Assembly: GCA_022813865.1 (NCBI GenBank)
Contig: JALDZX010000043.1
Location: 124,001-185,813 of the forward strand
Reading direction: 5' to 3'
Length of the DNA: 61,813 bases
Source of the DNA: Xylographa opegraphella
Lineage: Eukaryota
Shown: positions 13,942 to 47,398 of the stretch, piece after piece
How the letters are laid out: every line of letters starts with the position of its first letter
How positions within the stretch are numbered: position 1 is the first letter of the stretch
The notes under the pieces: model-generated
What the model was told of the DNA's origin: nothing
The model's input: only the letters and a program-made list of their open reading frames with translations
The model's database searches: none
Translations under genes and position numbers: made by a program

Positions 13942-14319
13942 GGGGATTAGGCTACAGTAGCGAAAAGGGGATGATTCGATTTGTACATGATACTCGTGGG
14001 ACGGAGGGGCGTTTTCGATGTAGCCGTTGGGCATTCCATGTCATTATGCGACGGGATGTAAAGCATCGGCGCTCAGGCAGGGAGTCTTGTGGCATAAGCT
14101 TCGTTCTCCTTTCCAAACTTCCGCAATCTTCATGCCTTCACGGTCGCTTTTCACGACATGCATGTGTTTCGTGGTGCAAGTTCTGTGGCATGTTGTGTCT
14201 TCTCCAGCACTTTCCTGGTTACATGATGCAATGAGTGAAGCGGGGAAGCTCTCGATAAGCACTTCCCTCCCGACTCTGTCGCTCGCCTTCACTCCGCTCC
14301 CACCGCCGCCGCCCATACG

Positions 14320-16161
14320 ATGTTCGTTTCCGGGCTCTTCGGGAGTTTTAAATCTCGAGCTGCTTATCATCATGGGCGGTTGCCCGGGATTCGTAAGGTG
14401 CCTTTGCCGGCCATCGGCATCATCGCTCTTGTGGCATTGGTGAACCTGGCGGTCTGGACCGCCGTGGGTGTAGTGTTGGTATGTGTATCTAATAAATGCA
14501 CTTCGATCGAATGGTCATATGGCTTACGATTCTAGCATTATCATGTGTATGCCGTTGTTTCTCTCTCCCTCCGTCCGTGCCGGTTGACGTTCTCCCGCGA
14601 GGCTGACCGACACGCTCCGATGATAGCGCACTGGTTTCTACCGCCGTTCTGGCCTATACGCTGGGGCTGCGACATGCGCTGGATGCCGACCACATCTCCG
14701 TAGATTCGACCAGTGTTTAATTCCACGTTCGTTCTAACCGTACGCTCAGGCGATTGACCTCATGACAAGAAGACTGGTCGCTTCCGGTGGCCGTCCCGTC
14801 ACGGTGGGAACTTTCTTCTCCCTCGGGCATTCGACGTGCGTTGGCATATGTGAAGGTTTCTTCTCAACCGTTTTTCATCCTGATACATTCACTCTTCGTC
14901 TTCCCCCTTCGTCCTTGTAATTCGATCGCAGCTGTCTAAATTCACCCTGACGTCCCATCCCTTTGAGCCTGCACTCCAGCCGTCCCCACTCTCACTCACC
15001 TGAATCTCTCTCCGCTACAGAATTGTCGTCATCACTTCCATCGTCGTCGCTGCTACCGCGTCAGCCGTGTCTTCGAAGTTCGGTGCCTTCAGCACGATCG
15101 GAGGCATAATCGGCAGCTCCGTCTCGGCTGCTTTCCTCATCATCCTTGGCTTGATGAACGTCTACATCATGTACAAACTCATGCAGCAGATGAAAACCCT
15201 CATCCATTCATCCCCGGAGGAGGAGCAGGCGTTCAAGATCAAAGGCGCCGGATGTCTTTTCTGGCTGTTCAAGAAGATGTTCAAGATCATTGACAGGTAC
15301 GGAGGCATGCAGCTTGAAACAGGTCACTCCTTTGCTTCCCTTGTCTGGCTAATCGAGGCAACGACAGACCATGGAAGATGTACCCGCTGGGAGTCATGTT
15401 CGGCCTTGGCTTCGACACAAGCTCCGAGGTCGCCCTGCTCGGCATTGCCAGTATACAGGCCTCCAAGGGCACGAGCATCTGGCTCATCCTCGTCTTCCCG
15501 GCTCTCTTCACCGGTAGGCTTACACTTGATGCTTACGCAGTTACTTCGGCCACACAGATACCCGCCTCTCCCTAGCCATGATAGCTGACACGAGAAAATA
15601 GCGGGAATGTGCCTGCTCGACACGCTCGACGGTGCGCTGATGCTCACGCTGTACACGTCTCCGTCCCTAGCCAAGGACACCATCGCTATCCTGTACTACT
15701 CCATCGTCCTGACGGGCATCACCGTCGTGGTCGCCTTGGTGATCGGCACCATCCAGCTCCTCACGCTCGTACTCAACATCGCGAAACCGACGGGGAAGTT
15801 CTGGACCGGGGTGCAGGTTGCGGGCGATCACTACGATATCATAGGTGAGCAGCTCACTCCCCCACAGCCGCAGAACTCGGGCACGGTTATCCACCCAGTT
15901 ACACCAACCTGACCTGCGACCGCAGGCGGCGGCATTTGCGCCTCGTTTGTGGTGTTTGGAGCCTTGAGCGTCCTCCTGTACAAGCCATGGCGGCGGCACA
16001 TCGACCGCCAGAGGGCCGCAGGGAGGCACCTCGCACCAGATGATAGAATAGCGGAGGTGGTCGAGTTGGAGGTTCACGGTAAGCAGGTGGAGGGGGGGGA
16101 CTGTAACCGCTGCAGAAACCACGGGAGCACATCTCTCGACATTCGAAGAGCGACCATGTGA
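14320..16161 (+). CDS. High-affinity nickel/cobalt transporter (NiCoT family, Nic1-like); multi-exon
   Basis: [17 protein letters not shown] signature (RHAxDADHI), [30 protein letters not shown] and [10 protein letters not shown] spread over several exons. Confidence 0.9.
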
Positions 16162-16723
16162 TACGCCCGTGGTTACAGCTACAGTGGTGAAGGTGTGATG
16201 CTTGTGTAGATTATGAGCCAGCTACATGAACCGATGTTTGCATCCGAATTCTCTTTTGTGCCTTGTATAATGCATGTAGTACATGCCTGGTGGACGTAGA
16301 TTAAAAGGCTGGATGTAAACCAAAAGGCTGGACGTAGATTGGGACGTTCCAGACTCGAAAAAACCTACCAAATGGTGCTCTGGGAGAGCTGAGGTGGTAC
16401 TTTCCTAACAAAACGAGAGATATTACAAACTACTACTCTGGCAAGAACCCCTGTGTCCCCCGGGTTCTGCACCAACGGCACACAAAAGGGTTGGCAGACA
16501 CGCCGGATCAGCCATGCATGCAATCGGGTCAGGATCGCAGGAAAGTCGGACGAGCCGAGCGTTGAGACAGTACGGGCACTTTACGTGAGCGGACTGGACG
16601 GGTCAGGTATTTGGTGGGAAGGTCAATCACCTATTTACATGTCCACTCCCCTACTCCCTCACCTATTTACATGTCTACTCCCCCTACTGCGACGTCACGA
16701 TTCGAAGTCTTGACAACCGAGTG

Positions 16724-18139
16724 CTAGACCGGAGTCCTCGCCAGGACATCCGCCTCGCTATCCTGCCCCGGCCGGACTTCCACCACCCGCTCGCCGTTCT
16801 CCCACCGCAGCCGCAACATCACTTGCAGACCCTCCGCCACTAGGTCGATTGATGGCCGACCATCCTGATCTCGCCTCGGGGTCACGGCCGCCGGAAGCAG
16901 CCGGACGGGGGGCAGGGACGCAAACTTCAGCATAGGCCGCTCGTCGGGGAGGATGTGCCACTTGTCACCCCAACGGCCCGCCCAAGCTTTCCACTCGTCG
17001 CTGACCTCGCCCAGAGCGACGAGCGGAACGATGTCAGCGTCCACGCCGAGCGCGGTCGGGATCGGAGGCCATCCCATCAGATAGCCGGCTGCTTGAGCGA
17101 TTTTGATGACCATCTGTTGGCCCTGTGGAGAATTCGTCATCACGCAGATGCCACACCCGTCGGCCTTGCCCAGCTCCGCCGTACCTTCTCCGGCGACGTC
17201 GACCCAGCCAAGGAGCATACAGCGGTATCCAGGATGGTTGGAGCCACCGTGGTAGATGACGTTGCTGCCGGCAGGGGCCATCCACCCACGTGCGAATTTC
17301 GACTGGACAGCTGTAAGCATGAGCCGGGCCCATGCTTGCCTGAGGAAGCTGTCGTTGGCACCCTGGAGCGAAGACTGGAGTGCACGGATGACAACAAGGA
17401 GTTCCCTTGGGGTTGTCCACAGCCCTGCGGCTGCCAGTTCCGGGAATATATGATACGGCGGTTCATGAGCCGTATCGGCGGTGTCGTAAGCACCGGCGAA
17501 GTTTCGCTCCGTGTCAGGAAGTTTATAGCAGCTTCGGCTCATGCGAAGCGGCTCGAAGACGAGCTCCTGGACGATTGCGGCAAATGGTTTCCGTAGCACG
17601 GTCTCCAAGATCATTTGCGCCACGGTGATTCCGCCGCCGGAATATTCGACGCGCTGGCCGGGGAAGCCTTCGAGACGGACTTGACATGTGTTGCTTGGAG
17701 AGCGGCCTTGCAATATGGTAGCGATCGGCGGTGGATCATGGGCGTAACCGGGGAAACCACCAACGGAGAGGCCGGAGGTGTGAGACAGGAGCATCTCGAC
17801 GGTGATGTGCTGGAGCAACGGCTTGGTTTGGGTCGTCTCGAGGAAAGCGAGCTGTTGCGGGGACAGGTATTCGGTGATCGGGGCAGTCACGGACAGGTGA
17901 CCCGCTTGGGCGGCTCGGAAGACGGCCACTGCCGCGATGGGCTTCGAGATGCTGCAGGCTTGGAACAAGGTGTCGGCATCGACAGCGGAGGTTGAGATGG
18001 TCGTGGTGGAAATTTCATCGTGGGCCAGAGTTGCGATGGAGGCTGCGGGAACCCCCAGTCGGGCCAGGGCCTCTGCGGACGAGATTGGGGGTTCGTACTG
18101 GCCAGCGATAAGATCCTCAAGAGCTTGTAAGACTGCCAT
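16724..18139 (-). CDS. Beta-lactamase/serine hydrolase family protein (class C/PBP-like fold), intronless
   Basis: FQACSISKP (SxxK), LLSHTSGL, YSGGG (YxN-equivalent), AAAGLWTTP and HGG motifs. Confidence 0.85.
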   Translation of the reverse strand: MAVLQALEDLIAGQYEPPISSAEALARLGVPAASIATLAHDEISTTTISTSAVDADTLFQACSISKPIAAVAVFRAAQAGHLSVTAPITEYLSPQQLAFLETTQTKPLLQHITVEMLLSHTSGLSVGGFPGYAHDPPPIATILQGRSPSNTCQVRLEGFPGQRVEYSGGGITVAQMILETVLRKPFAAIVQELVFEPLRMSRSCYKLPDTERNFAGAYDTADTAHEPPYHIFPELAAAGLWTTPRELLVVIRALQSSLQGANDSFLRQAWARLMLTAVQSKFARGWMAPAGSNVIYHGGSNHPGYRCMLLGWVDVAGEGTAELGKADGCGICVMTNSPQGQQMVIKIAQAAGYLMGWPPIPTALGVDADIVPLVALGEVSDEWKAWAGRWGDKWHILPDERPMLKFASLPPVRLLPAAVTPRRDQDGRPSIDLVAEGLQVMLRLRWENGERVVEVRPGQDSEADVLARTPV

Positions 18140-21021
18140 GATGAAAAGTAGTTTAAATCAAAGGTAGAAAAGATGGAATGGTCACGACAACGGCGATGGA
18201 GGATTTACTTTAAATGAAAGAACCGAAAGATTGGGATACACCAACCAGGGCAGCTGCGTCACAGTCTTGCGCAAGACATTTAGATCCAGAGCTGGTTACG
18301 TCGTCGGTGACACGGACAGGCATCGAAGGCAGACGACGACAAGGTGCTTGCGAGGGCTGGCGTACGCAGTGCAAACGGACGTTGGATTAAAGGTGTGAAG
18401 AAGCACGACCATTTCATGAGCCATGGGGGACAGATGACGCGGCCACAAGCGGGCGATAGGTGCCACTAATGGATAGAGTGCGCATGATGGCAGGCCCAGC
18501 ACAGATTGAGAGAACAGAAGAACAGAGACGAGAGAAACGAGGGGAGCTGGCAGGGGGGAGGAACGGGGAAGGGGAGGGATGGCAATCCTTCTCCAATGAA
18601 GCAATTGATGATGAGGTGAGTCACACTGGGGGAGCATGGCCGCAAACGCCTACCTGGATACATATAATCTGAGGGGGGACCCATCCACAATCTTCGCATC
18701 CTTCCGTCTTCCTCATCCTGTTCAAAGCACACGTTTTCCAGCTCAGCATTGAATCTTCACCAGTCCTTACCGAGTACCCAATAAGCCACCACAACAAAGA
18801 TGCAGAGCACCACCAGCACGACACGTGCTGGTGCCAAGATCCTCCTCTCCGCATTGGCCCGGCCCGGCATCCCGAAGCAGCCCGAGAGCGTGGGACCCGG
18901 GAGGAGAGTCACGATGTTTTGATCGGCGTGCGCCGGCAGCGGAAAAAGCAACACTTGGGCTGACCAGCGGACAATGCGTCGCGAGAGGTTCAGGTTCTAG
19001 AACGATGCGATGGAAGGTCTGAAGCGCCTTGGTGGTCGCGATGTGTTCCTGACTTGCAGAAAGCTGCAGCATAGGTACATTGCTCCCTCCCTCATTCGGC
19101 GCAACGACCAGGGCGCCTGCCTCAAAGCCCGTTGCATCGTGTGCTCCGCTGCACTTTCGGCTCCTCTAGCCCCGGGAGCACCAATGGCGCCGCTGTTTCG
19201 CCACGACGATACGGCTGCATGGGCCACCACGCACCATGGGCCTTGCCACAATCAGGATTGGCGAACCCGAGGCCCAGTGGCGAGACTTGCTGGATGCTGG
19301 ACCGGCTACACAGTAGAAGTGGTCGCCAGATGCATGGCTGATGAGCTCTCCCTCCTCACGACGAAATCCCTCGTTCCTGCTGTTTGGCGCTAGATCGCCT
19401 GTTGGCCATGGGCGCGGAGGGATGTGCATACTCCTACACAGTACTCAGTACCTTGGGTGGTGGCGGACCACCAGCTGTCGTCTCGATCGACCTCGCTGTC
19501 GCTGGAGTCGAGGGGCGATCAGCGTGCGCGATCAGCCTTCATCGTCATCGTCATCCCCATGGACGCTCAACGTCATTCCGTAATGCACAGATATCGCACC
19601 GTGGCAGTCACTAGCAAGACCGGTGGTGGCCGATAACCATGATGTGCATCTGGGCGGCTGGTCAGTGGTGGAGGAACTTTGCACATTCTTACATATGCCG
19701 CCGTCTACGATGAGGCCATGGATTACTGTGTATGTGCTCTGATCATGGCTTGTTCGGTTGTGGCCCTCATCCTCCTTCGTCTTTGTCGTTACCTTATCGC
19801 ACACCTTCCTTCGAGCGACGGCTAAACAAGAAGGAGCAATCTTGCTCCGCACGACGGCCTTGGCGTCTTCGGCTCCGTGGCTGCAAATCTCGAACCAAGC
19901 TTCGCACCGACCAATCGGCCGACGCGCCCCGCCATAGCGAAAAGCTTCTGGAAGATCCGATTGTGACACACGCTAAACCCCTTCGCGGCCAGGTCAATGC
20001 GCCAAGCGCGGGTTTAGACGATTACTACCCTGCCCTTGCCCTACTTTAGGACTAACTCCGAGCCTCTAGTCCATCTTACGTACTTTACTAGCCAAGTCGT
20101 GGTACTGCGTGAGGTGAGCAAGTACAACTCCGTCCTACGACCCGCGTTGAAACAAAAGCCTCTCACGTGTGCACACGACGTGGGAAGTGCTGTCGCGTGG
20201 GAAGTCGACCTGACGACGGGAAACCGAATCTGAGGACGAACGGCCTCCACCGACTGGAACCTCCCAGGAGATGATACGGCCAGCATGCTTTGCTGAGTGA
20301 AGATGGCCGTCTCCGCTGGCAGCGCGAGGCTGACGGAGATGACATGCTCCACCGTCGCCGACATGGGTGGCGCTGCCGGTGAGACAGCAGCGATGGCTAT
20401 CAGCGACCATGCCCGATCCAGCCGTCCGACCCTCGCACATTCGCTGCGGTGCGAGGCATGACCGAAGGCTGGAATCGTGTGCAGTCGACCGAGGTCGAAG
20501 TTCCCGACCAATCATCTGCTGCGGAGAGGGCGCTGCAAGTCCCCACAGTGGCCGTTGCCTGACTCCCTGGTAGCAGCTGCAAAGTCGAGTTGTAGGGAAA
20601 GCGGCAGCGATAGGACTAAGGTACTGTACCGGACCTCGAGCTCTGTCATCTCCACTCAAGCTTCTGGTTGGCAACGTTCGGCCGATAAGTGCAGCGGCGC
20701 CACGGACCTCAATCGTGTTGGAGGCCGGCCGTCATTATTGGCTCGAGGCGCTTGTAGCCATTGCGGAAGGTAAGAGAGGACCGGGGTGCGCATTCACTGG
20801 CTCTGCTTCACATCCCTGTCCGCTGTTCGCTTCGATCGTCCGCTCAAACACGCTCTATCAGTTTGCTGGCAGACGGCGGAAATCTCCAATAGATATAAAC
20901 CCACCCCCCTCCCTGGGACGGGCCACGATCTCTCCTTTTTGCTGCCCATTCCTGTCCCTCCTTTGGAACTGCAGGCTCCCCCTCCCCCCATAGCCCTTTC
21001 CTCCCAACACCTGCATCGATC

Positions 21022-23569
21022 ATGGCCACTCCAGATCGATCGGAAGGCATTGCCTCTGATGTCGGCCGTACCACCGCCTATGAGGGCGACGAGAAGGCCG
21101 GCTACGGCCATTCCGCCAGCATCTCCAAGAACTCCTCCGGCAGTGAATCGCCCAAGGCCGTCAACGAGAAAGCCGATTATGGAATGGCCGCCCCCGCCTA
21201 CGACGAGGAGGAGGCTGGACACACCGGCAAGCTGCGCGTCGAGAACGCCGAACAGCTCGTCACCAGCGTTCTCTCCGTCGACGACGACCCCACCCTGAAT
21301 GCGTGGACCTTTCGCATGTGGTTTCTCGGTATGCTCCGTCGACGACTCCCCCCCCGGCCCCCAATCCTCCGCCGGTGAGCCGACCATCTAACCATCGTCG
21401 CAGGTCTTGGGCTCTCGCTGTTCGGCTCCGTGCTGTCGACCATCTACTACTTCAAACCGCAGACCGTTTTCGTCTCCGTCATTTTCTTGACCATCTGGAG
21501 TTACATCCTCGGCGAGATCATGGCGAAGATCATCCCGAAGACGGGCTTCATCGGTCGGTGGTTCAATCCTCACAAGTTCAACCACAAGGAGCATGCCGCC
21601 ATTGTCATCATGTCGTCCGCCGCCGCCACCTGCGCGCTCGGGACCGAGGTGCTCGCGGTGCAACGTCTGTACTACAGCGCCTCCCCGAACGCGGGCGCCT
21701 CCATCTTTCTCCTCTTCTCCTCGCAGTGCTTGGGATACGGCATCGCCGGACTCATGCGCAAAACGCTCGTCTACCCGACCAAGATGCTGTACCCCATCAA
21801 TCTGCCCTTGAACACCCTGCTCGAGACCCTCCACCGCGACAAGACGGAGACCGCCCGCCGTCTCAAGCTGTTCTACATCATGTTCTGCGTCCTCTTCGTG
21901 TGGGAGGCCTTCCCCGAGTACATCATGCCGCTCATGACCGGCGTCAGCATTTTCTGCCTTGCCAAGCGGGACAGCCTCGTCTTCACCAACCTCTTCGGTG
22001 GCACGAACGGAAACGAAGGTCTCGGCTTCCTTTCGTGGTGTATGGATTGGCAGTACATTGCGGGAACCCAGTCGCCACTCTGGTTCCCGCTCCAGACGTT
22101 GGTCAACAACCTCGTCGGATACCTCCTGTGTATCTGTGTGTTCATGGGCGTTTACTACATGAACATCTGGAACGCCCAAGACTTCCCCTTCCTCTCCCAG
22201 CTGTTGTTCTCCAACACTTCCAACGGCACCTCCTACGTCGAGTATAACCAGACCGCGCTCCTCGATTCCAACAACGTGCTCGACCCGGCCATGCTGGACG
22301 TTCTCGGCATCCCCTACTTCGCGACCACGTACGCGACCTACATCTTGAGCACCAACCTCGCCATCACCGCGACCTTCACGCACATGTTCCTCTGGAACTA
22401 CAAGGACATCAGCACGGCCTGGTCCTTCGCCTCGTGGACCAATATCAAGAGGGCCATGAACGTCGAGAACTGGAAATTCTGGAAGGGCGACAAGCAGACC
22501 ATCAGTCCGGAGGAGGAGGCGGCCTTGGACCCTCACTACCGGCTCATGCTGGTCTACAAGGACGCCCCGAACTGGTGGTATGGTGCCATTCTGGTTTTCT
22601 CCATCGTCGTGGGTTTGGTCTGTCTCTACGAGGTCGATTCCACGCTGCCATGGTGGGCCTTTTTCGTCGCATGCGGCCTCGCGGTCATTTGCATCTTGTT
22701 CTTCGGTGCGCAGTACGCCATCACTGGGTTTCAGTTCATCATCCAACCGATCATCCAGATGATTGGAGGATACCTGCACCCCGGCTACCCCGTCGCCAAC
22801 ATGTACTTCACTCTGTTCGGCTACAATGCCGTCGTGCAGGGGCAGCTGCTGCTCAAGGACCTCAAGATTGCTCAATACGCCAAGCTCCCGCCGCGGGTCA
22901 CCTTCACCGCTCAGTTGATCGGGACGCTCGTGGGCGCCATCTTCAACTACGTCATGATGATTTCCATCGTGGACAACCAGCGTGACATTTTACTGTCCAT
23001 CGAAGGAACCAACATCTGGTCCGGACAAAACGTCCAGCAGTACAACTCCCAGGCGATCGCCTGGGGCGGTCTGGCCAAGTACATGTTCAGCGTCGGCGGT
23101 CGCTACGAATGGGTGACGCTGGCCTTCCTCGTCGGCTTCGCCATCCCTCTCCCCTTCTACTTCCTCCACCGCCTCTTCCCGCGAGCCGGTTTCTGGTACT
23201 GGAACACGGCCATCATGACCTACTACATCGGCTGGCTGTGCGTCGGGATCAACTCCTCCATTTTGACCTACTTCGCCGTCGGCTTCGCGTCCCAATGGTT
23301 TATGCGCAAGTACCACCCCGAATGGTTCGTCAAGTACAACTACATCTTGTCGGCCGCCATGGATGGAGGCACCCAAGTGCTGGTCTTCATCTTCACCTTT
23401 GCCGTCGATGGTGGCAGCGGTGCGTCGGTCACCTTCCCGACATACTGGGGCAACAACGGTGGAACTGGGGACGGAATGAATTACGACTACTGTAAGTCTG
23501 GCCTGTCATCGTGCTATCCACCCTCACTGACCCGACCGATCAGGCATGTTCAACCCCGCCAACGGCTAA
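21022..23569 (+). CDS. Oligopeptide transporter (OPT family); introns about 21329-21403 and 23492-23543
   Basis: DDDPTLNAWTFRMWFLG, FNPHKFNHKEHA, LDPHYRLMLVYKDAPNWWY, DLKIAQYAKLPPR and KYNYILSAAMDGGT; many TM segments. Confidence 0.93.
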
Positions 23570-24328
23570 GTAATAGACGATGGAAGTTGATGACCTGGCT
23601 GGCGCGATGGTGGGATGATGTTTCGATAGTTGTTTGCCATGAAAAATAATACACCAATGGTTCAATCTGACTTGACATACATGAAGTATCTCAGCAGTGA
23701 TATATGCTTGAACGGATTTGAATCAAGCTGCCAATTACGCTTGCAAGCCTCTGACCCCCATGACCCCTTATGAGTTGAAATGTGCCGATAATGACATGCT
23801 GCGCTACCTTCGCCTCCGCTCCTGGCGCTTCACATTCGGTCGTCGTGAGGATTTTACTCGACAGTCCTTCGTAGCTGAGACCGACAAAGGGTCGATCTAG
23901 GGTGCGTGTGGGTGTCGTCGGTTTATTGTGCTGATTATGATTGCAAGTACTGCAACTATCGTAGACTAGATTTCATAAATACCATAAGCGCATTGGCCTT
24001 CTTGGGAGGAAACTTTTACGGATCTACGATGAATTCCCCATTCGATCATGAGCCTGGGAAATATAGGTATATGATACCAAATTGGGCGTACAAGTGCTCC
24101 CTACAGGCTCGATTGGGCAAAGTGGAACTTGCACGTGACACACAAAATCGCGCCACCGCCCGCCAAGAGAGTGTTTGCTTTTCTTTCACCGGCACCACAA
24201 AAACCGTTCTTCGCAAACACCACCGTTCTCGACCCTCGCAACTCCCAACCACCCGCACATATTTCTCCACCGCATCACCACAGTATATCGCTCGAGTCCA
24301 CCATCGACGACTCTGTCCGACCATCAAA

Positions 24329-24547
24329 ATGGGAAACGGCGCCAAAGCAGCCTCGAAGCGGGAGCGCAACGCCAAAGAGGCCAACACGGGCGGCAAGTCG
24401 CAGCTGAAGAGCAACGCGGCGGCCAAGACGCTCATCTGCAAGAACTGCAAGCAGGACTGGCAGGGCACCACGAACAAGGCCACCCTCGAGCAGCACGCCA
24501 GTTCCCGACACCCGAAGCTGAAGTACGAGGACTGCTTTGATAATTGA
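24329..24547 (+). CDS. Small DUF1909/At2g23090-like zinc-binding protein (72 aa)
   Basis: MGNGAKAASKRERNAK...KSQLKSNAAAKTLICKNCKQ...LEQHASSRHPK..YEDCF: 4F5-like N-terminus plus CxxC..H..H; good ATG context (AAAATGG). Confidence 0.85.
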   Translation: MGNGAKAASKRERNAKEANTGGKSQLKSNAAAKTLICKNCKQDWQGTTNKATLEQHASSRHPKLKYEDCFDN

Positions 24548-25720
24548 CGGCAAGGGGTCGGCGGTCAATGGGAGACGGAGTGGGTGGGAAAGCGGGATGT
24601 GCGCATTGGGCATGGCTTTTCGGATCTGTGGCGTTGAGCTGGGAGTATGGGGGTGTTTGGCTGTTGAGCACTGGGCCTAAGTTACACTGCGCCAATCTGC
24701 TGTGTCCTTGGGAGTAGAGTACGTGGACCCGGCAGTCGGGTCTTCGGGCGCGTTCTAATGATACCAAAATCGCAGATCACGACGATACGATAAGCTCAAA
24801 ATCCTGCCGACCCGAACCATGACGCTGTTATTGTTGTGGTGATAACTGTCCAGCCCGTCCTCCTGCCGCTTACGTTCTAGGTTAGTCAGATGTAAGCGCT
24901 ATGGGGTTCAAGTGTCCACCATGCCACACGATATGCGACTGATTTTGTGAAAAGGGAAGGGAGGGGTGTCACTTCTACACGGCACTCTGGCTGACATGTG
25001 AGAACATGGTTTTGTACGGCCGGAACTTGTATCTTGACAAAGACATGTGCCAAGGCTGTGTGACCATCACCCAACATGTCGGAGAATAAAAAATCAACGG
25101 TGTTTTCTTGACTTTCCCACTACTACCGCTCCACCGGTCCAGCGGTAGCTTTGCCGCCTAATCCCTCCAGGGACCTTTGGTCAACTCGTCGTGTTGGAAA
25201 TCGCTGACGGCACCCTAAAATTCTCAGTAATCGTGCCCCAAACCATTTCCAGGATTTGCCCTAAGCGGCAGGTCGCGACGGAAGAACCTCTTCCGGCTCC
25301 GCAACGATAACCGATCGGTCGGGAGTCCCCATGGACACTAATGAGTTAGACTAGGTACGTTAATCAAAGCTTGATTTGTGGATATCGACCTATTTTGATG
25401 ATCTTGATAACTGATACTCTGGCATTATTCTGCGCGACGTACTAGGCATGGTGTGACGTCGTCGGCGTCTGTTGGGCATTGAGGTAAGGTACTCTATGGG
25501 GACCGATCGTTAGTGGGAAGGGAACAACCGCAGTGTCGGAAACCGGGTTTAGGTCAGTTGTAGCTGCCCGTGTATCAAACTGTAAGGTATGGGAGGTAAG
25601 GTAGGTGGTACTTTACCTGGGAGTCCCGAGAAACCGGTAATAAAAATTAGGCATCCATCTCCGGTAGTTTGTCGCACTTGAACTTCAAGTTGAATGGCTT
25701 GAATAACGGCTAGATACATA

Positions 25721-25723
<3 letters not shown>

Positions 25724-25769
<46 letters not shown>
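25724..25769. repeat. (GA)n microsatellite
   Basis: Uninterrupted GA run of about 23 units. Confidence 0.95.
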
Positions 25770-25772
<3 letters not shown>

Positions 25773-26013
25773 TGGGTAGAGGACGTCTTCATAATTCTAA
25801 TGCAAATGCAATGAATTAGGAGCCGGGCAGCTTCATCATTGGGGAAGACCTGACGATTCGACGGGTTCCAATGTATATTTGACAAGGTAGAATAAATACT
25901 CAGTGGATGAATGCCTACGCGACCCCACACGTTACACTTGTCCATTGCTGCACGGTGCACACGATCAAGATCCCAAGGTAGGTAGGTACTGAAGGGGAAA
26001 GTCCCCTTTCCCC

Positions 26014-26241
26014 CTGAATCCCTGCATACAGTCTCTCTCACACAAAGTGCGAGGCAAAAGCACCAGCAACGCTCCGCACTCCATACAAGTCCAACGCCAG
26101 CCCTCTGCACCCGGTTAAGATCCTACCGAAAGACCTTCTGAATCCTGCATACAATCTCCCTCACACAAAGGTGCGAGGCCAAAGCACCAGCAACGCTCCG
26201 CACTCCTTTCCCGCTACCAATCCACCACCGGCCCTCCGCAC
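26014..26241. repeat. Imperfect direct repeat, two copies (26014-26110 and 26138-26241); copy 2 overlaps the viperin C-terminal codons
   Basis: Both copies read CTGAATCC(C)TGCATACA.TCTC.CTCACACAAAG(G)TGCGAGGC.AAAGCACCAGCAACGCTCCGCACTCC, about 124 nt apart. Confidence 0.9.
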
Positions 26242-27251
26242 TCCTGCCCCGTGCCGCCGCGCGTCCAATCGTACAGACCGCCTCGCGAGACAAAGCTCTC
26301 CTGGTCCCAAAACACCCTCGCCAACGCGGCCTTGACGCCGACCTGGAGGATCGGCGGCGACGGCTGCCGGCCGTCACGGTCGAGGAAACCCATGTACTCG
26401 TCCAGGATGAGGTACGACTTCGCCATGAGCCGGTTCGGCTCGGCCACGAAGGACTTCTGGCCCCGGTGCCGGGCGCAGAAGCGCTCGTACTGCTCGTCCG
26501 AGATCTGGAACTTGCGCACGTCCCGCAGCGTCGTGGCCGAGTCGTTCTCGCCCGCCACCATGAGCACCTGGAAGCACTTCCACCGGAACGGCTGCAGCAC
26601 CGAGATCCAGCCGTTCATGTCCTCCTCGTGGTTGAGCTGGCAGACCACCGTGTTGAGTTTGAAGCGGATGCCGTACTCAAGGCACCATGCCGCGATCCGG
26701 GTCAGCTTCCGCACGTTGTCGCCACTACCGCGCCCGATGGCGATGTTGGTGGCCTCGTTGAAGGAGTCGCACGACACGGCGAGGATGTCGATGTACGGCC
26801 CGTACTTCTTCAGAAAGGCCTCGTTCACCAGACTGCCGTTCGTCACGATCGACACGGACTCGAGCTGCAGCGTTTCTTTGCAGTAGGCGATCATGTGTCC
26901 GAGGAAGTCCCGGTACAGGAACGGCTCGCCGCCGGCGAAGTTGAGCTTCTTCATCCCTGCTTTGGCGAGGAGGGCCAAGCCGCGTTTGGCTTCTTCCTCG
27001 GGCATTCGGTAGGACGTGGTGGCCGTATGGAAGCAGAAGCCGCAAGTCTTGTTGCATTGGCGGGTGAAGTGGTAGTTGACAGATATGGGCGTGGCGATGT
27101 TTGGTGTGGGAGGTTTGGAGCGACCGGTGGCAATTACAGGACTGCCCTGCCTCCTAAGCGGCTGCCTGCGTATGTACCATCTCCACGAGGCGAACATGAC
27201 TACCACTACCGCGAGCGATGAAATGAAGCCCACATACTGGAGGAGGACCAT
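26214..27251 (-). CDS. RSAD2: Viperin (RSAD2-like radical SAM ddhNTP synthase), 345 aa, intronless, with N-terminal membrane anchor
   Basis: SVNYHFTRQCNKTCGFCFHTA (CxxxCxxC), KKLNFAGGEPFL, SVSIVTNGS, DILAVSCDSF, FKLNTVV, RWKCFQVL..GEN, EPNRLMAKSYLILDEYM, F..RGGLYDW and terminal Trp (VDW*): the full viperin motif set. First ATG is at 27251, followed by the hydrophobic segment VLLQYVGFISSLAVVVVMFASW. Confidence 0.95.
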   Translation of the reverse strand: MVLLQYVGFISSLAVVVVMFASWRWYIRRQPLRRQGSPVIATGRSKPPTPNIATPISVNYHFTRQCNKTCGFCFHTATTSYRMPEEEAKRGLALLAKAGMKKLNFAGGEPFLYRDFLGHMIAYCKETLQLESVSIVTNGSLVNEAFLKKYGPYIDILAVSCDSFNEATNIAIGRGSGDNVRKLTRIAAWCLEYGIRFKLNTVVCQLNHEEDMNGWISVLQPFRWKCFQVLMVAGENDSATTLRDVRKFQISDEQYERFCARHRGQKSFVAEPNRLMAKSYLILDEYMGFLDRDGRQPSPPILQVGVKAALARVFWDQESFVSRGGLYDWTRGGTGQECGGPVVDW

Positions 27252-27648
27252 CTCTTCACAGGGGACTGCTTGTCTACCGGAAAGAGAGGGCAGGGTGAGC
27301 TGTGGAGTAGTGCGAAACAGCAACGTATGGTCCGTTTTCCAGCGGCTCCTGGCTGTTTTAACATCACATTATAAGTAGAGGCAGATGGGTTGTTAAGAAA
27401 AGAACGAGACGTTTGATGCTTTTTCTAGAAGTTACACGGGAGTAGGGATTCCTGCGCATGAGAACGAAGCGGACAGACAGGTTTGCTATCGCGATCGTGC
27501 ATCAGATGAAAACGACAAACAAGTAATTCCACCATAACAAAGGTAGCTCTTGCGAACACATTCCAGCGCAGTTACCAAACCCCGTCCGTCTTTCGCTGAA
27601 GATAGGTGAATACGCTTGCACAACACTTTCGAACTTATTCTAAGCCTC
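27252..27648. promoter_or_regulatory. Putative bidirectional promoter between viperin and the NMP kinase
   Basis: Only 397 bp separate the two divergent ATGs. TTATAA near 27370 and a palindromic ATCGCGAT near 27488. Confidence 0.5.
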
Positions 27649-28431
27649 ATGATTGTGGGAACGAAGCCAGAAGTACATGTATTGATTATAGGTATACAAC
27701 CCTGCTTTGAAAACGCCCGTCTAATTTGTGGTAGGTGCCCCAGCTTCTGGCAAAGGTACGCTTTGCAAGAAGCTTTCGGAGGACTACGGCTTCTACCATC
27801 TTTCTGTGGGCGACCTCATCCGACAAGCACTTAACGATCGAACAAATCACGCTTTAGACGAAGCTCGCGAAGAGGCCATGAAACGCATGAAAGAGGGAAC
27901 GCTACTCGCAACAGAAGTCTTGGTCCCCATCATGACAGCAGAGATTGGCAAGCAAAGATTATCAGGACATCGGCGGTTCCTGATCGATGGCTTTCCCAGG
28001 CGTCTGGACCAAGCGGCTTCCTTTGCTCCTCATGTAGGACGGTCTACCGATGGCGTTGACAAGCATGAGCTGACCACACGCCAAGATGATCAAACCAATG
28101 CTTGTCATCCACGTCCAATGCCCCAGGGATGTAGCTCTGAATCGATATTTGAGCCGTAAACTACCTGGACGACTTGATGATGACGAGGAGTTATTTCACC
28201 GGAGGTATCACCACTACTTGCGACATAACGATGACATCTCGGCGCATTACCGTGCAATGGGTGTTCTTGTGGAGGTTCGGATCAGTCCCTCTGAAACTTG
28301 ATCCAGAAATGTGTGTTGATTGTGCCATGTAGATTGACTCAAGTGGCGATACCCAAAGTACATATGAGCGGCTTGTGCAGCTCCTCAGAGAGCACGAAAT
28401 ATGGAAGATGTTTCATGAAACTGCAGGCTAG
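27649..28431 (+). CDS. Nucleoside monophosphate kinase (adenylate/UMP-CMP kinase family, short LID), 209 aa; exons 27649-27691, 27735-28033, 28086-28274, 28333-28431
   Basis: Three GT..AG introns join into one open frame: VLIIGAPASGKGTLC (P-loop), HLSVGDLIR, FLIDGFPRRLDQA, short LID RYLSRKLPGRLDDDEELFHRR, then VLVEIDSSG...TAG. Confidence 0.9.
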
Positions 28432-28951
28432 CGGCTGTCTCTCAAACCGCTTTAGTGTAGCTGAGTATGATAGAAAAGCACCGCCCTAGCGGATTAAGGT
28501 AAAAGCTCTGGAGGTTGATGAATGTGAATATGATCACCAACCAAAAACCCATGCTGTGTATGAACTGTGAGCTGGTCCGTTCCATCTGAGCCCCTTGTCG
28601 CATTGGCTTCGACTAAAAAGTTTGTGATACTGAAGGAGATCCTTGCCACAAATTCCGCACATGTGTCTCCGTACCCACCATCTTATCACACAAGGCCGAC
28701 TTCCACGATTGTGTACGCAACCGTATGTTTGTATATTGCAGCCTGCTTTTCAAATCAACACATCATAGACCAACTTTCAGTACCAACCCTGTTTCCTGCA
28801 TTGCGTGTTATTGGTGAAGTGACTCACGCTTCCGAAGTCTACGGAGCACTTTCTTTATACTTGCGAAATAACCTCCATACTCTAGTGAACAGAGTTCCCA
28901 TAGATTGAATTCATTCTAAATTTCGGAGAATCCTAAAGCATTGACGTCAAT

Positions 28952-29584
28952 ATGCGACCTGTCATGCCTATTTCAAAAAACAAAATCCTCGAAGTCGAGC
29001 GTAAATTTGTCTGCAATCCACGTACCACAAGCATCATTCATTCAAACAACGGCTTCCCTCGTCTACCAAATCTCACTTTCAAAGGGCGGCACACCTTCGA
29101 AGACATCTATTACGACTTCAACGATGTCTGCTTCTCGCGAGGAATCTGGATACGAAAGCGCAATGGAACATGGCAGGCCAAGATTCGGCGGGGAGGCGAT
29201 TTCACTAATTCACAATTTGACGAAATCGACGGAGCGGAGGATGTTGGAGCTCTGGTGCAGAAGCTGCACGTGGACGCACCTATCAAAGCAGAGAACTTTG
29301 GACTGGACGAACTCGCCAGATTCGTCACCCGAAGAGACGCATGGAAGGTAGCGGATGTCTATGAGGTCGTGGTTGATAATACGGACTTTGGACATTCGGT
29401 TGGTGAGGTGGAGATGCAGCAAACTCTCGAGGCGGATAGTAGGGATGATGGAACCGTTGCCATTCAAATGGATGCCCGAATCAAAGAGTTCATGCAGAAG
29501 CATTCCTGGGCATTCCCTCCAGGTAAAGTCGTAGGAAAGCTATCTGCATATTTCGAATGGGCACGAGCAAACAAAGGTAGTTGA
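28952..29584 (+). CDS. CYTH/triphosphate tunnel metalloenzyme, thiamine-triphosphatase-like
   Basis: LEVERKF (ExExK), FEDIYYD, WIRKRNG.WQAK, VVVDNTDFGHSVGEVE and GKLSAYF match the ThTPase-type CYTH layout. Confidence 0.87.
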   Translation: MRPVMPISKNKILEVERKFVCNPRTTSIIHSNNGFPRLPNLTFKGRHTFEDIYYDFNDVCFSRGIWIRKRNGTWQAKIRRGGDFTNSQFDEIDGAEDVGALVQKLHVDAPIKAENFGLDELARFVTRRDAWKVADVYEVVVDNTDFGHSVGEVEMQQTLEADSRDDGTVAIQMDARIKEFMQKHSWAFPPGKVVGKLSAYFEWARANKGS

Positions 29585-39382: not shown

Positions 39383-42039
39383 ATGTCACGCATTGTCGAT
39401 GACGCTGGTAACCTGCAGCAGTTCACTGCAGCAGTCACTGACGTCCTAGCTTCTCTTGGTCAACGTAAGGACTACGGTCATCCTGCACGAGGTGAAGCGC
39501 AAAGCTCAACAGCTGCTATTGTCCAACCTCAACCATCATCCATAGCACCAGCCATGAATTCTCATCCTTACAAACCTGGTTCTCCAGTGACAACACTGCC
39601 TCTGTACACAACCCAAGGTGTCCGAGAGGGATCATCAGCAATCGTGCCATCGCGCGGAGTCAACCAGGTGACTTCCCAAATCACTAATAGCTTTCCATCC
39701 CTACCCATTCAAGATGATCGCAAGCCAGATGGGAACAAGGTTCATTTCAAATCCATGGACAACGGTACATCAGTCAAGCCAGAATTTGCCATCAATAAAC
39801 ATCTCGACAGTCCTCAGCTAGCAGGTCTTCGGGCTCCGCCCCCAACACCTGAAACTGGGGCACAAAAGACTATTGATACTGGTTCGTACAATGAAAACTG
39901 CCTGGGAGACGACCCTCTTGAAGAAGAACTCGCAAATGAGGACCTATTGATAAGCCACATTGAAAAGCACATTATGAACAAGCCTACGCACACAGGACTT
40001 GGCGAGAGTATGTATGCTCATCGGAAACCGGCCTACCTTGCGAACGAAACTGGCCATACTCAATACACGTATTCAGGAGGCGATGCCTCTCCTACAGCTC
40101 GTCGGGAACGCGAGAAGTCTTTTGAGCGCCTTTCCTTCGTGGTGGCAAGCGCTTCGAAAGCGGAGCTTCTTTCGAAGATCAACGCGGAAACCATGATCAA
40201 ATCTGATACTTCTGGTCTGCGCCAAGCAGTCGCTTCACCAGAGAATCTAAATATTATCGAACAGGTAACCCTTGAGCTACCACGGCTTAAAGTTACCGCA
40301 CCCGGTTCTATGCGAAACCAGACCGTCAAAGACAGGCAAGCTCAAATGGAAATGGAGAAGGTTGCGCCTGCACCAACACCAGGTCTTGGACAAAGTCAGC
40401 TTATCAGAATGGTGCAGGCCCACGCAATTTTGGAAGCGACATCCCCAGTACTAGCACCAGTACCCGCGCCCGCTCAATCTGCCAAGGATGAGCGAGTACA
40501 CGTGAAATCAGAGAAGGTCCTAGCAGCGCCATCACGGACCTCTGTACCAAACCAACCTGCTAAAGGCGAGCAAGTTCGCAGTGTAGAGAATGCGGCCAAT
40601 GCTGCAGCAGAGCCATCAATCGTTGCATTCAAAGTTGAGCTACAAACGTTTCTTGATAAGTATGGTGCCCGAAATAAAGGAGCAACTACGAAGCTTGATC
40701 CACAACCCTCGGAACAGACTGCTATTCGTACAACTAATCCGACACAATCTTCAGTTCCTGCAGAGAAGAACGAAACTACTATAGAATCTTCCTCACACAA
40801 CAAGTCCAGTTCTACGATTGCTTCGGACTTGGTTCTATTACAGCAACAGTCTGGCAATAAGTCCACTTCTACAATCAACAAAAAGCCCAATCTACCACCA
40901 AACCTGAAGGTCAATAGTAAGGTCCCTGGCGATACTGAGAACGTAGGGCTACCTGCCGACCCAGTCAATGCGACCAGTGCTCGCCCAAGTACGCCATTGC
41001 GGGTTATTGCCGTCAGTCAAAAGGACATTCCGTCAACTGGTAAGGACAAGATCCATCACGTCTCAAGCACTACGCTCCGCACTATAACTCCTGTCTCAGG
41101 GAAATTTGAGGATTTGTCTCCACAAACAGCCCGCCATGTTCTTAGACCAAACACTCGAAACAGCTCTGCAGACAAATTGCAGAGCACTGATGATACATAC
41201 ACGACCTATTGGGGCCGTTATCCGGAGCCAGAGCGAAGGGACCAACCAGGTACGTATTACTATACTTCATATAGTATGCTGTAAGACAAATGGATGAATC
41301 CTCTGACTCTCTGCAAGTTGCTTGTGTACGACGGGCCATCATCTCAGCGCTTCCGATTCCATGCAGCATGAAGTTCGTAGCATCTATTGTATACGGTGGC
41401 TCGGTCGAAAACATCGTCATGAAGGCAGCCGGTACAGCCGAAGTGCTCTTTGTAAAACCCGAGGATTGCTCCAGGTACTGCGAAGAGAACAAGAACGGTC
41501 TGGTATACGGGAAAGAGGTATATGAGGGTGACAAAGCTCGGGAACTGTTCGTTCTCGTCAAAGCCCACGTGGATGTGGACGTTGTGGGAGGTAAGATGAC
41601 AGAAATGGTCCTCCGCGGTGTTTCACGATGTGTGCGTGTCATTTGGGCGGATTCGGACTACACTACGCATGATCTTTGGAAGCTCGCGGAGGGCAAGACT
41701 CGCAAGGTTGAGCATATCGTGGACGACACCAAGACTGTTGAGATTGAGAGCAACGGCAAGAAGACCAACCGAGAGGTACACTGCCCTTGCTCCTGACAAC
41801 CATTTCCACTCTGTGGTTTCAACTGACGAGGAGTGCAGTGTCGCACCGTTACCTTCCGCTTCTGCAAGATGCAGGACGCAGACAGCTTTTTCGCCTCCCT
41901 CCGTAAGGATATAGATTGGGAGCACTGCAATATTACCTTCGCACCTGACCCGTGAGTACAGCCCCGCTCTCGACAGTCGATGTGATACTGACGACTTTAT
42001 GGATGTGCCACGGCCGCGGGTGTCCATCTTGAAGATTGA
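39383..42039 (+). CDS. Fungal protein with long low-complexity N-terminus and C-terminal RRM-like domains; introns 41250-41317, 41776-41838, probable 41952-42002
   Basis: 633-aa ORF splices into RRAIISALP..VYGGSVE..AEVLF..SRCVRVI...TVTFRFCKMQDA..WEHCNITFAPDPC, a divergent RRM-like pattern. The start codon is uncertain. Confidence 0.6.
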
Positions 42040-42702
42040 GAAGATGGGCCGTGGACTACGGCTCCAGGAGCATCAGGCCGAAAGGGACGAATGCATGGGT
42101 GAGGGGCTTTTGGCTGGCTGTGCTTGGATGGCGGATGATGTACTGGAGGTATAGCTTGCCTCGGACAGTGTCGAGCCAGTGATACATGCTATGCTAGTGG
42201 AAGTGAAGCTGAAACTCACGTTCCGCAATTGTCGAATGGTGCAGAAGGTGTTCGTGACTGTGTGCAGACTCCCCGTAAGGAAGATGTCGTAGCAACCCCC
42301 GGAATGTGCTCCCACGTGCAAGAGGCCACCGTGCTGGACCTTGCCATCAGTCCTCTGGGTGGAGGGTGAGGAGCCGGCAATGGGGAAAACGCATGACGCG
42401 GCTGAGACAGTCTGCCTGCGCTGCGGTGCCATCGGCGCTTCGGTCCCATTGGCGCTGGTCCTGAGGAAGCATTGAGCTTCTGCTACGCAGTACGCCGCCA
42501 AGGATAGGACCAGCTAGATCGGAAGTGGCTGGTCCGGGTCGTGGATGCCGCAGCGAATGTGCATCGAACACGGCGCAGAAGATAGGCGCGTAGGGTCAGC
42601 ATCGAGCGAAAGTTGCCCCGACCCATCAGGCACGTACCGCCGTTGCCCTCTTGCAGGTCGCCGAACTTGTCGGAAGGATAGGGATACGAGTAATATTCTT
42701 CA

Positions 42703-42726
42703 TGTGTGTGTGTGTGTGTGTGTGTG
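42703..42726. repeat. (TG)12 microsatellite
   Basis: Direct reading of the sequence. Confidence 0.9.
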
Positions 42727-45700
42727 CGATTCGGTCCGGTCATTCCAATCCTGTCAAGCTATTTCCGTCCTCGTCAGCGGAATGTCGTTGAACCGTTCAG
42801 CCTTGTTGCCCGATGATCCAACACCGCTCATGGTTCCAGCATGGTTTCATTGGGATTCTGCTCTCCTTCACAGTGGCGAGGTGCAAAGATCGATGACGAG
42901 CGCTTTAACATTGCAACGTCGCGGAGCAGACAAGGCCCTGGACCAGTATCCAGTAACTTGGACGGCAAGGCATGCAGCTCGATAAGTTCTGCAGGATCTG
43001 ACACCCCACTCGCATACACGCGAAGAAGGGGGGAGCCCTATCTAAGGCAAGCTATGAATACCTTAAGGTACCAAGGTAGGTATACAATCCTCAAGGATAG
43101 ACAACCGGGTTTGTAAGCCTGAAGAATGGTTCCCCCGACTTGGCTGGCGGCTACGCACGATCAGGGCTCTCCAGGCTGGTTTCAAATCCTTCGGCAGTCC
43201 CACAATTCTTCCACAACGGACATCCCTCATTGCTCGGACGACTGGCACGAATCAGGAGGCACTCATCGCGGCGGGCGACGCACATAACCGTCAGCTTGAT
43301 CAGGACTGATGATGGAATCCATTGGAGGCGTGGAGAGCGAAAGGCGAGAGACGGCCGAGCGTAGGCGCAACAACGGTTGATATCACTTGTCATATGATGG
43401 AAGATGATGCTTGCATCGAGCCAGCGAAGCGTGCAGGATTCGATGTGCATGGCCCGTCAATCACTCACTCGGGCTGCCCACTTGGCGCCTATCTCGGCAC
43501 TTGCCACTACCGCTTTCGATGAATGAAACACATGCACAAGAACTCGCCACGAGGCTGAGCTGGGGGTGTGGCGTGTCGAATAATGAGGGGGGTACGGAGT
43601 CACGGGTCGCCAGGGTGGTCGGGTGAAGATAAGACCGGTTCACAGGATCAGATGGAAGCAGCATTGAGATACCAACATCATGAACCTACCCCCCTCCCCC
43701 GCCGCTTTCCCCCGTCTCATCTCTGCATTCACATGGGCAACACAGCCTGAAAGGTTGGGAGATCACGGTGTGCTGCATCACGATCCGGGATCGAGCTTTT
43801 GAGGCGCGAGCTAAAGACAAGCGCGCGCTCCGCCGATCATCTCGGCTCGAGACTCGAGCCTCGAGTCGACTGTGATCGGGGCTGCAGGCGCGGACGTAGA
43901 CGCGTCTTCCGGAGCTAAGAAAGGCAGGCCGTTCATTGGACCGATATCCGGCTCGGTGGGGGGGGCGGGAAGCGACAGACGATCCTGTTCGTTCGTTCTG
44001 GCTCTCCGAAGGTACATTCTCGGCTCGAAAGAGGCATCCGTCACGGGTTGAGAGTTGCAACGTGGAAGGAAGCAAAGCTGCCTGAATGCCGAGCTGCCGT
44101 TCGACGTTGCAGTGTGAGCCAGCCCTGAGGAATCCGCGGCAGGCCGGACGTGGCTTGCGACGGAGTCGGCTTCATCAGCAATCCTGCTTACGCTCCCACT
44201 GCTGTCGATCACACGCCTGGGGAGCTGGACGGCCGGCACGATTGGACAGCGTCACTGCGACGAGATGGATGCTTTCCTCACCGAGGCAGTCCCCCTGGTG
44301 CTTGGTCGTTGCAACGAGTCGCCGGATTGTGAATAATATGCAGGGGGGAAGAACACTACCTTACCTACCTTACCTTACCGTACCATAGCAAATCGATCGA
44401 CCTTAGCGCAGGCTCAAGCTTACATATCATCATGTGGGGGTGGTTGCCATTGTTGCAGGAATCTGACGCCGTGCCTAGGTCCAACACCACTCCCATTTAT
44501 CAGTACATAGGACTATAGACGTTGCTGTTGCGCGCTCTCGAGCTTGTGATGCGACCATAGACGAGCGGAACACGACTCGAGCAGTTGCCAATCATGTTCT
44601 GCAACCTCAGGTGGTGTGGGAGATCTGGAGCTGAGGAGCAGGGGGGGGCCCCGGCCTAGGGCGGGTAAAGGCTGGAATCAAGAGCGGGGACGTTAAGGTA
44701 GGGCACGCGGGCGCCTGTCAAAGTAGGAAGTAAAAGTGCAGTGCTCTGTCGCGCATACCACAGTAGCCTAGCCTTACCCCTCCCGACCCCTGTCCTCCCT
44801 TACCGACTTACTACGTAAGGTAAGTTCCCGCTCGGAGCCGATCCCCCACAACCCTATCGCCATCGGCCTACGAACCGCCTTACTCCGTACAGCCAACGAA
44901 TTCGCGTCGTTCCTCGACGAGGAAACAACCGACGCGAACGGCGGCGCTCGTCGGCTCGGAATCCCTCCGCCTCCGAGAGCCACAGGCTACCTTAGTAGGT
45001 ACCTTATTCTGTCCATTGGCAAAATGGCGAAATCTCGTCCACGCAGCGCTCCGACATCCACACTTCCACACTTACTCGCCAGACACTGCAACGACCAGAA
45101 GCTTGGTGGCACGATCGCAACACCGTGGTCAAGACCGTACACGTGATCCATGTTGTATGCGGGCGGCCTGGCTAAGGCTTCTGCACGCGGCGAAACACAC
45201 TATTTTGGTCAAGAATATAGCCGCCGTGCACCCCGACACGGAGGTGCCGTGGATGTCAAGACTGCCCGCCCGCATCTGCGCGATGCAGAGCCACCCTAGA
45301 ACATTTGACGGTTCCCGGTCTGTCCACGCGCTTGCTCCATGCCCCAACTCTTTGAGAGAGCGTTATCCACCCACGGCTAGGTTGCTACCGGAGGGCGGCG
45401 CGGCGGCAGTGTTTAGCTGGCCGAAGGGCATGCCGGGATGGAGCAGCCAAGGCTTTTCTCAGTTTAAGCTACCATACCTCGACTTCGGGTCCAGCTGTAC
45501 TGTGGACATACTGCTGCATATCCCTGATAGCGGCGGACGAACAGGTAATCTACTAGCACCTGCAGCGCTGGCGCTGCCCCATCCCTCCACACCCCACCCA
45601 GCCGAAATCAAGCTGAACGGTAGATAGCCAACCATTTGCAGGGCCTTCTACCGGCTGTCGATGGTCGGTCGACAGACTCATAGGCCGCGTGAACCGATGC

Positions 45701-47086: not shown

Positions 47087-47398
47087 CTGAGTGCCCAGCG
47101 TGATCGGGGTCGATTCGAATTGGAGTAGAGGCTTCATTCGGCGTGGCTTTTCGGATGAGCCTTGGTGGCCCAGATGATTGATCATGCGGTGCTTTCATCG
47201 AGACTGGTTTTCGTCTCATCTGATAGCGCTTCCATTCTTTCACCGGTTCAATGTAAATATCCCGGCGTTGGCGGATCCGTTGGCTTTCAGCGTTATTCAT
47301 GTAAAATGGAATGGGACGTCCAGGAGAGGAATGGATTCGGAAAGCTAGCTAGAGCGTAGTACTTGTATGCAACTTCTTACGAACAGCTACCCGCTACC

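Follow-up and report, generated by a model that had tools for sequence, protein, structure and literature searches.

A UMP-CMP-type kinase and a thiamine-triphosphatase-like CYTH gene recur beside viperin in diverse fungi

A 61.8-kb window of the Xylographa opegraphella genome (GenBank assembly GCA_022813865.1, contig JALDZX010000043.1, positions 124,001 to 185,813) contains three adjacent genes at positions 26214 to 29584. They are predicted to encode viperin, a radical-SAM (S-adenosylmethionine) synthase of 3'-deoxy-3',4'-didehydro-nucleoside triphosphates (ddhNTPs), a CMPK1/URA6-type UMP-CMP (uridine and cytidine monophosphate) kinase, and a thiamine triphosphatase (ThTPase)-like CYTH enzyme (Table 1). 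We find this trio to be a conserved three-gene unit across diverse fungi. Recurrence of this arrangement in numerous distant loci takes it beyond chance; a sequence-only reading of the same DNA had likewise proposed a clustered unit rather than a chance neighbourhood. That reading had also located the three genes correctly and described the kinase as intact and head-to-head with viperin, as borne out by four GT-AG-spliced exons and a 397-bp intergenic gap. The persistence of the trio in distant fungi suggests that CYTH takes part in the viperin pathway, a role so far unrecognised, and its position as a third conserved enzyme of the viperin-kinase module appears to be undescribed.

Public metagenome contigs were scanned with an alignment of 19 fungal viperins, and 80 of 104 confirmed stretches were kept as viperin loci. 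By tblastn, 46 of the 80 loci carry the kinase and 32 carry CYTH; many of the rest are contigs of 1-3 kb. Merging loci with viperin DNA at least 95% identical reduced the 80 loci to 63 dereplicated groups (kinase, n = 27; CYTH, n = 22). Where a group retains at least 3 kb on both flanks (n = 18), the kinase lies within 3 kb of viperin in 16, CYTH in 12 and both in 11; where it retains at least 5 kb on both flanks (n = 14), the kinase is present in all 14 and CYTH in 9. The sequence-only reading had called for this count over other viperin loci and had named absence of the linkage from other fungi as grounds for giving up the proposal; the linkage is present in them. Viperin and kinase face head-to-head in 26 of the 27 kinase-bearing groups, with a median gap of 452 bp between high-scoring segment pairs, and CYTH is located at most 4.2 kb from viperin in 21 of the 22 CYTH-bearing groups.

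To separate a conserved unit from inherited gene order, all open reading frames (ORFs) of at least 80 aa were clustered from the 63 representatives and from 10 kb either side of the viperin gene in the window. The clusters found in more than 3 loci are those overlapping viperin, the kinase (25 loci) or CYTH (24 loci), and no other flanking ORF family among the 63 loci and the window exceeds 3 loci, the best reaching 3. Wider synteny is therefore not what keeps CYTH near viperin. With viperin written as the plus strand, CYTH occupies four arrangements: beyond the kinase and on its strand, as in the window (A, 8 rows); beyond the kinase on the opposite strand (B, 4 rows); after viperin on the minus strand (C, 5 rows); and after viperin on the plus strand (D, 4 rows). 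The viperin tree requires at least 9 changes of arrangement, of which 5 carry CYTH from one side of the viperin-kinase pair to the other, a rough count because the tree is a quick one with 42 of its 87 inner branches unsupported. CYTH-bearing loci fall within the clade of named Pezizomycotina (near Dothideomycetes, Sordariales, Chaetothyriales and lichen/Onygenales references) and also within many deeper unnamed viperin clades.

Single loci show variation in gene content. One metagenome locus (L049) carries kinase, viperin and CYTH, and its close relative (L048) has CYTH and no kinase detectable in 4 kb upstream, which suggests loss of the kinase with retention of CYTH. In another (L045), CYTH is found 99 bp from viperin without a kinase.

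The linkage is also found in named genomes. In X. trunciseda, viperin, kinase and CYTH are consecutive (locus tags MMC11_002301/2/3), and the locus tags of viperin and CYTH are close in X. bjoerkii (CYTH 002978, viperin 002980), X. carneopallida (viperin 004302, CYTH 004304) and X. vitiligo (viperin 005991, CYTH 005992). In each of Aspergillus sclerotiicarbonarius and A. ibericus, viperin and CYTH are on contigs of equal length (183664 and 237771, respectively), and therefore on the same scaffold. The viperin gene of Neofusicoccum ribis (011339; Dothideomycetes) adjoins the gene of a 410-aa protein that resembles a kinase joined to CYTH (P0010, SLS56_011338); Pfam finds only ADK in it, and its C-terminal half matches CYTH genes by tblastn only. 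A second protein (P0223, 839 aa) has Pfam matches to both ADK and CYTH, with a weak bZIP match as well. These predicted kinase-CYTH fusions fit a close working relation between the enzymes, as do the viperin fusions reported by Shomar et al. (2023); the predicted kinase-CYTH forms may be genuine or may be merged models of adjacent genes, since same-strand neighbours are prone to this annotation error. A kinase-CYTH complex prediction made without alignments spoke neither for nor against a complex (score 0.00, mark 0.34). Arabidopsis TTM1/TTM2 (PDB 7z67) similarly combine a nucleotide-kinase-type domain and a CYTH domain in one protein, and differ in that the kinase is of the uridine-kinase and not the NMP (nucleoside monophosphate)-kinase type, the enzymes are reported to be pyrophosphatases, and there is no viperin. 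A further annotated protein, from Alternaria panax (P0164, 405 aa), joins viperin to an AAA_28 (P-loop kinase-like) domain at the C-terminal end, and may be a viperin-kinase fusion in a fungus or two genes merged in one model.

Prokaryotic viperins (pVips) belong to the same family and show occasional kinase linkage; unlike the window, no CYTH was found in 79 of their loci. A hidden Markov model of the fungal family searched against 2874 ORFs within 6 kb either side of these viperins found no CYTH, except in one record's own trio (L081), and Pfam CYTH was absent from the 105 scanned of 171 motif-prefiltered ORFs, the other 66, mostly longer or overlapping viperin, being unscanned. The exceptional record, titled Lapillicoccus sp. 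MAG (metagenome-assembled genome), chromosome 1 (6.65 Mb), from a prokaryote genome collection, has 43.5% G+C and a fungal-type trio in arrangement A, and its viperin is 69% identical to that of the window. The record seems to be eukaryotic sequence, similar to that of a lichen fungus, under a bacterial title.

Motifs and full-length similarity to characterised viperins identify the first gene of the window as viperin. The protein matches Pfam Radical_SAM at 66.1 bits, the solved fungal viperins 6b4c/7n7i at 451 bits over residues 54-334, and mammalian viperin 6q2p at 327 bits. The iron-sulfur motif CNKTCGFC (C66, C70 and C73 of CxxxCxxC), the SAM-binding GGE within AGGEPF (G107, G108, E109) and Arg292 in the beta-8 loop 'FLDR' are invariant in our viperin alignment (A1). 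The protein begins with a hydrophobic helix and ends in W. Arg292 is probably the counterpart of Trichoderma virens Arg257, a correspondence mapped by motif and not by structure. The conserved head-to-head layout leads us to presume that the gap between viperin and the kinase is a shared bidirectional promoter; a repeat search for a motif common to this gap and the region upstream of CYTH yielded short chance-like repeats only.

The four-exon kinase model, with GT-AG introns of 43, 52 and 58 nt, is an exact match to a 209-aa X. opegraphella protein (P0001) named UMP-CMP kinase at source. Its exon 2 matches Pfam ADK at 82 bits. The top solved relative is yeast URA6 (1uky), at only 102 bits; AK1 and human UMP-CMP kinase (1tev) rank next, and neither CMPK2 nor thymidylate kinase is among the 60 listed PDB matches. 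The GAPASGKGT P-loop, R44, D99-R103 (DGFPR) and the LID residues R134, R138, R143 and D146 are invariant or nearly so in the kinase alignment (A3), and the motifs align with yeast URA6. These motifs and the closest characterised relatives place the predicted enzyme in the CMPK1/URA6 branch of NMP kinases. The low URA6 score and the patchy distribution of relatives argue for a diverged extra copy, and the head-to-head linkage described above fits a copy that tracks viperin; the kinase is probably not the sole housekeeping orthologue, the outcome that the sequence-only reading had set against itself. A JGI (Joint Genome Institute) metagenome protein of 595 aa (P0004), 41% identical to the window kinase, contains two adenylate/UMP-CMP kinase domains and a nucleoside diphosphate kinase domain.

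The CYTH gene follows the kinase on the same strand after a gap of 520 bp. Its protein scores 23.1 bits against Pfam CYTH (PF01928), missing the cut-off of 23.2 by 0.1 bit, and many other members of the family pass that cut-off. It matches human and mouse ThTPase at E 8e-10, and a protein-cluster look-up returned CYTH/ThTPase-named clusters only, most commonly from Ascomycota and diatoms. The AlphaFold model (predicted local distance difference test 90.5) has nine beta strands and five helices and is that of a triphosphate-tunnel fold; in a Foldseek search ThTPases were best (template-modelling (TM) score 0.70-0.74), with probability 1.00 to ThTPases and other tunnel enzymes. By our own alignment-based mapping, Y53, W66, R68, R70 and K77 correspond to Y39, W53, R55, R57 and K65 of human ThTPase.

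Alignment of 33 family members shows conservation of the ExExK motif, of the Tyr/Lys dyad and of the tunnel residues, both basic and acidic. F19, D51, Y53, D55, R68, R70, W74, E91, R128, D142, E152 and E154 are invariant; the W66 equivalent is Trp or Tyr in most members and not invariant. Because ExExK, the Y53/K77 dyad, W66, Arg68/Arg70 and an acidic GEVE motif are all present in the window protein, we expect it to be active as a ThTPase-type hydrolase. The mammalian 25-kDa enzyme THTPA (PDB 3bhd, 3tvl, 5a64) is the best match in both sequence and fold, and equivalents of its ExExK, Tyr-39/Lys-65, Trp-53 and Arg-55/57 are present, at an identity of only about 24-26%. Unlike THTPA, the fungal family has an invariant C-terminal GKLSAY motif of its own and the linkage to viperin. 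Five members of the CYTH alignment A2 (P0061, P0078, P0082, P0085, P0086) have Arg/Ser/Ala-rich N-terminal extensions of 50-90 residues, which might be organelle-targeting peptides; the window protein has no such extension.

Table 1. Positions of the trio and its intergenic region in the window
Feature	Position	Strand	Details
Viperin (radical-SAM ddhNTP synthase)	26217..27251	-	single exon, 345 aa; stop codon 26214-26216; own protein P0089
Viperin-kinase intergenic region, presumed bidirectional promoter	27252..27648	.	397 bp, divergent genes
CMPK1/URA6-type UMP-CMP kinase (predicted)	27649..28431	+	exons 27649-27691, 27735-28033, 28086-28274, 28333-28431; 209 aa
Thiamine-triphosphatase-like CYTH (triphosphate tunnel) enzyme (predicted)	28952..29584	+	single exon, 210 aa; EVERKF motif (...ILEVERKF near start)

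A tblastn search of the whole window with the viperin, kinase and CYTH families gave matches at these three genes only. The trio is flanked on one side by genes for a P4-ATPase, NicO, a beta-lactamase-like protein, an OPT transporter and SERF/zf-met2, and on the other by genes for DNA ligase I and asparaginyl-tRNA synthetase. Two parts of the window (14000-28000 and 42000-48000) have a G+C content of 0.52-0.60, compared with 0.45-0.51 elsewhere. The first contains viperin and ends within the kinase; CYTH is just beyond it, in sequence mostly at 0.48 G+C.

Two arrangements in vertebrates provide a comparison. The RSAD2-CMPK2 pair is head-to-head, and human RSAD2 and THTPA are on different chromosomes. 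The published statements used here come from parts of Shomar et al. (2023, bioRxiv 10.1101/2023.09.13.557418), of a 2021 review (PMC8615392) and of PMC8801973. Human THTPA maps to 14q11.2 (PMC8615392). Like the window, the RSAD2-CMPK2 pair sets viperin beside a pyrimidine nucleotide kinase held to supply its substrate; unlike the window, CMPK2 is not of the CMPK1 family and there is no CYTH partner. Shomar et al. report the linkage of fungal viperin to a CMPK1-type kinase, read these fungal kinases as convergent with CMPK2 and kinases beside viperins as substrate suppliers, and give kinase linkage in 12% of bacterial viperins. They also report ddhUTP (the uridine triphosphate (UTP) analogue) as the main product of two fungal viperins, describe an Arg (Arg257 in T. 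virens) as the mark of the UTP pocket, and mention 4 eukaryotic viperins that carry a fused 'triphosphatase or cyclase domain'. Their fungal pair is like that of the window in having the same adjacent genes and a kinase of CMPK1/URA6 and not CMPK2 type, and unlike it in that a separate CYTH gene is not mentioned as a conserved neighbour in the parts covered. Apart from the fusion remark, we found no description of viperin-CYTH linkage in full-text literature searches, whose hits were judged partly by titles and abstracts. The sequence-only reading had supposed the three-gene arrangement to be undescribed in fungi, which holds for the CYTH member and fails for the viperin-kinase pair; as that pair is already published, only the CYTH member appears undescribed.

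We infer the enzymatic steps and the antiviral purpose of the trio as follows. Viperin, anchored by its N-terminal hydrophobic helix, would convert a pyrimidine nucleoside triphosphate into a ddhNTP chain terminator. Its substrate would be chiefly UTP, as published for two other species and as Arg292 suggests here. By analogy with CMPK2, which is the published reading, the divergent CMPK1-type kinase would phosphorylate UMP and CMP and so feed the substrate pool. CYTH would then hydrolyse the pathway's own product, ddhUTP or ddhCTP (the cytidine triphosphate (CTP) analogue), to the diphosphate and phosphate, which would either protect the host's own polymerases from being poisoned or start turning the product into lower phosphates or the nucleoside. 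The ddhNTP is proposed as the CYTH substrate because thiamine triphosphate (ThTP) resembles ddhCTP and ddhUTP: in our own comparison of the published structures, each has a pyrimidine, a planar five-membered ring and a CH2-O-triphosphate. The three genes very probably form a functionally linked unit. As a whole explanation, a viperin-kinase-CYTH defence unit in which CYTH hydrolyses the ddhNTP is the account towards which we lean, and the assignment of ddhNTP as the CYTH substrate, taken by itself, is tentative.

Several observations weigh against this account. Nearby CYTH is missing from 6 of 27 well-characterised rows (L032, L033, L055, L072, L075, L078), in two of which (L075, L078) it lies about 7 kb from viperin, and the third gene is therefore dispensable in some lineages. 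Many of the metagenome loci were called fungal from the kinase type and relatives only, and the count of rearrangements carries the roughness of the tree noted above. The CYTH family profile finds 1806 representatives with E <= 0.001, 214 of them with E <= 1e-30, and given this size many members may not be linked to viperin. Mammalian THTPA is reported to be nearly absolutely specific for ThTP (PMC8615392), so a ThTP-related role of CYTH is possible. A producer and a degrader of one molecule together would run a futile cycle unless separated in time or place. The window viperin itself may be impaired, because residue 288 (DEYMGFL; codon 26388-26390) is Gly at a near-invariant Arg position: the equivalent residue is Arg in 90 of 95 listed relatives bearing DEYM.FL (Cys in 3 and Ser in 1 of the others) and in 5 of 5 other Xylographa viperins. 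Gly288 could be a genuine activity-affecting change or a sequencing error.

Of the alternatives, it is unlikely that CYTH acts on UTP/CTP, thereby raising the analogue-to-substrate ratio, on inorganic triphosphate or on ThTP, with the linkage reflecting stress co-regulation. The nearest solved relatives are ThTPases, W66 (the Trp-53 equivalent) and the Tyr/Lys dyad are kept, and many tunnel enzymes are tripolyphosphatases (PMC8615392; titles of structure matches). Hydrolysis of UTP/CTP would, on the other hand, oppose the neighbouring kinase, and a housekeeping role fails to explain proximity of about 4 kb through at least 9 rearrangements in which no other neighbour is kept.

The trio could instead be a small biosynthetic pathway whose product, a ddh-nucleoside or ddh-nucleotide antimetabolite, is exported for chemical warfare or symbiosis rather than used against viruses inside the cell, with CYTH starting dephosphorylation for release. 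Fungal metabolite clusters typically hold the enzymes of consecutive steps close together, the trio sits amid ordinary housekeeping genes and not other defence genes, the position of CYTH is compatible with a downstream step, and ddh-nucleosides are known to leave animal cells (PMC8801973). No transporter, further phosphatase or regulator recurs, however, the other ORF families being confined to at most 3 loci, and the antiviral role of viperins is established for both animals and bacteria (Shomar et al. 2023); we consider export improbable.

That CYTH is a passive neighbour left by an accident of ancestral gene order would suit its absence from the vicinity of viperin in the 6 rows above, and the order common to Xylographa could be plain inheritance, but the ORF clustering and arrangement controls make this very improbable: the linkage is found in at least 4 named ascomycete classes and many deep unnamed viperin clades, CYTH takes four arrangements while all other flanking genes differ between loci, and by our own estimate the chance of a given single-copy gene falling within 3 kb of another in a genome of about 35 Mb is on the order of 1 in 5000. 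Equally far-fetched is a CyaB-type cyclase or signal generator that reports or triggers the response, for although some CYTH proteins are adenylyl cyclases (titles of structure matches) and Shomar et al. group the 'triphosphatase or cyclase' domains fused to viperins together, the CYTH fold is closest to ThTPase (TM 0.70-0.74, compared with about 0.5 for class IV cyclases), its sequence is also closest to that hydrolase and not to class IV cyclases, and by our own chemical inference a 3'-deoxy product cannot form a 3',5'-cyclic phosphate.

The 2021 review (PMC8615392) states that fungi have no identified specific ThTPase and describes the reaction of animal THTPA as obscure in its physiological significance. 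It is doubtful that CYTH is a dedicated ddh-nucleotide triphosphatase, the locus a three-step pathway, and animal THTPA perhaps descended from, or still active in, ddh-nucleotide metabolism, all three together.

Viperin is among the few immune enzymes common to bacteria through humans, and conserved functional gene linkage is uncommon in eukaryotes. A CYTH gene kept with viperin and the kinase through many rearrangements is a concrete candidate for the step by which cells control or dispose of the chain-terminating product of viperin, and the three-gene fungal case extends the published two-gene linkage of viperin and kinase. If the proposed role is true, CYTH would be the first known enzyme to process the viperin product, and the ThTPase branch of tunnel enzymes would gain its first genomic context outside animals.

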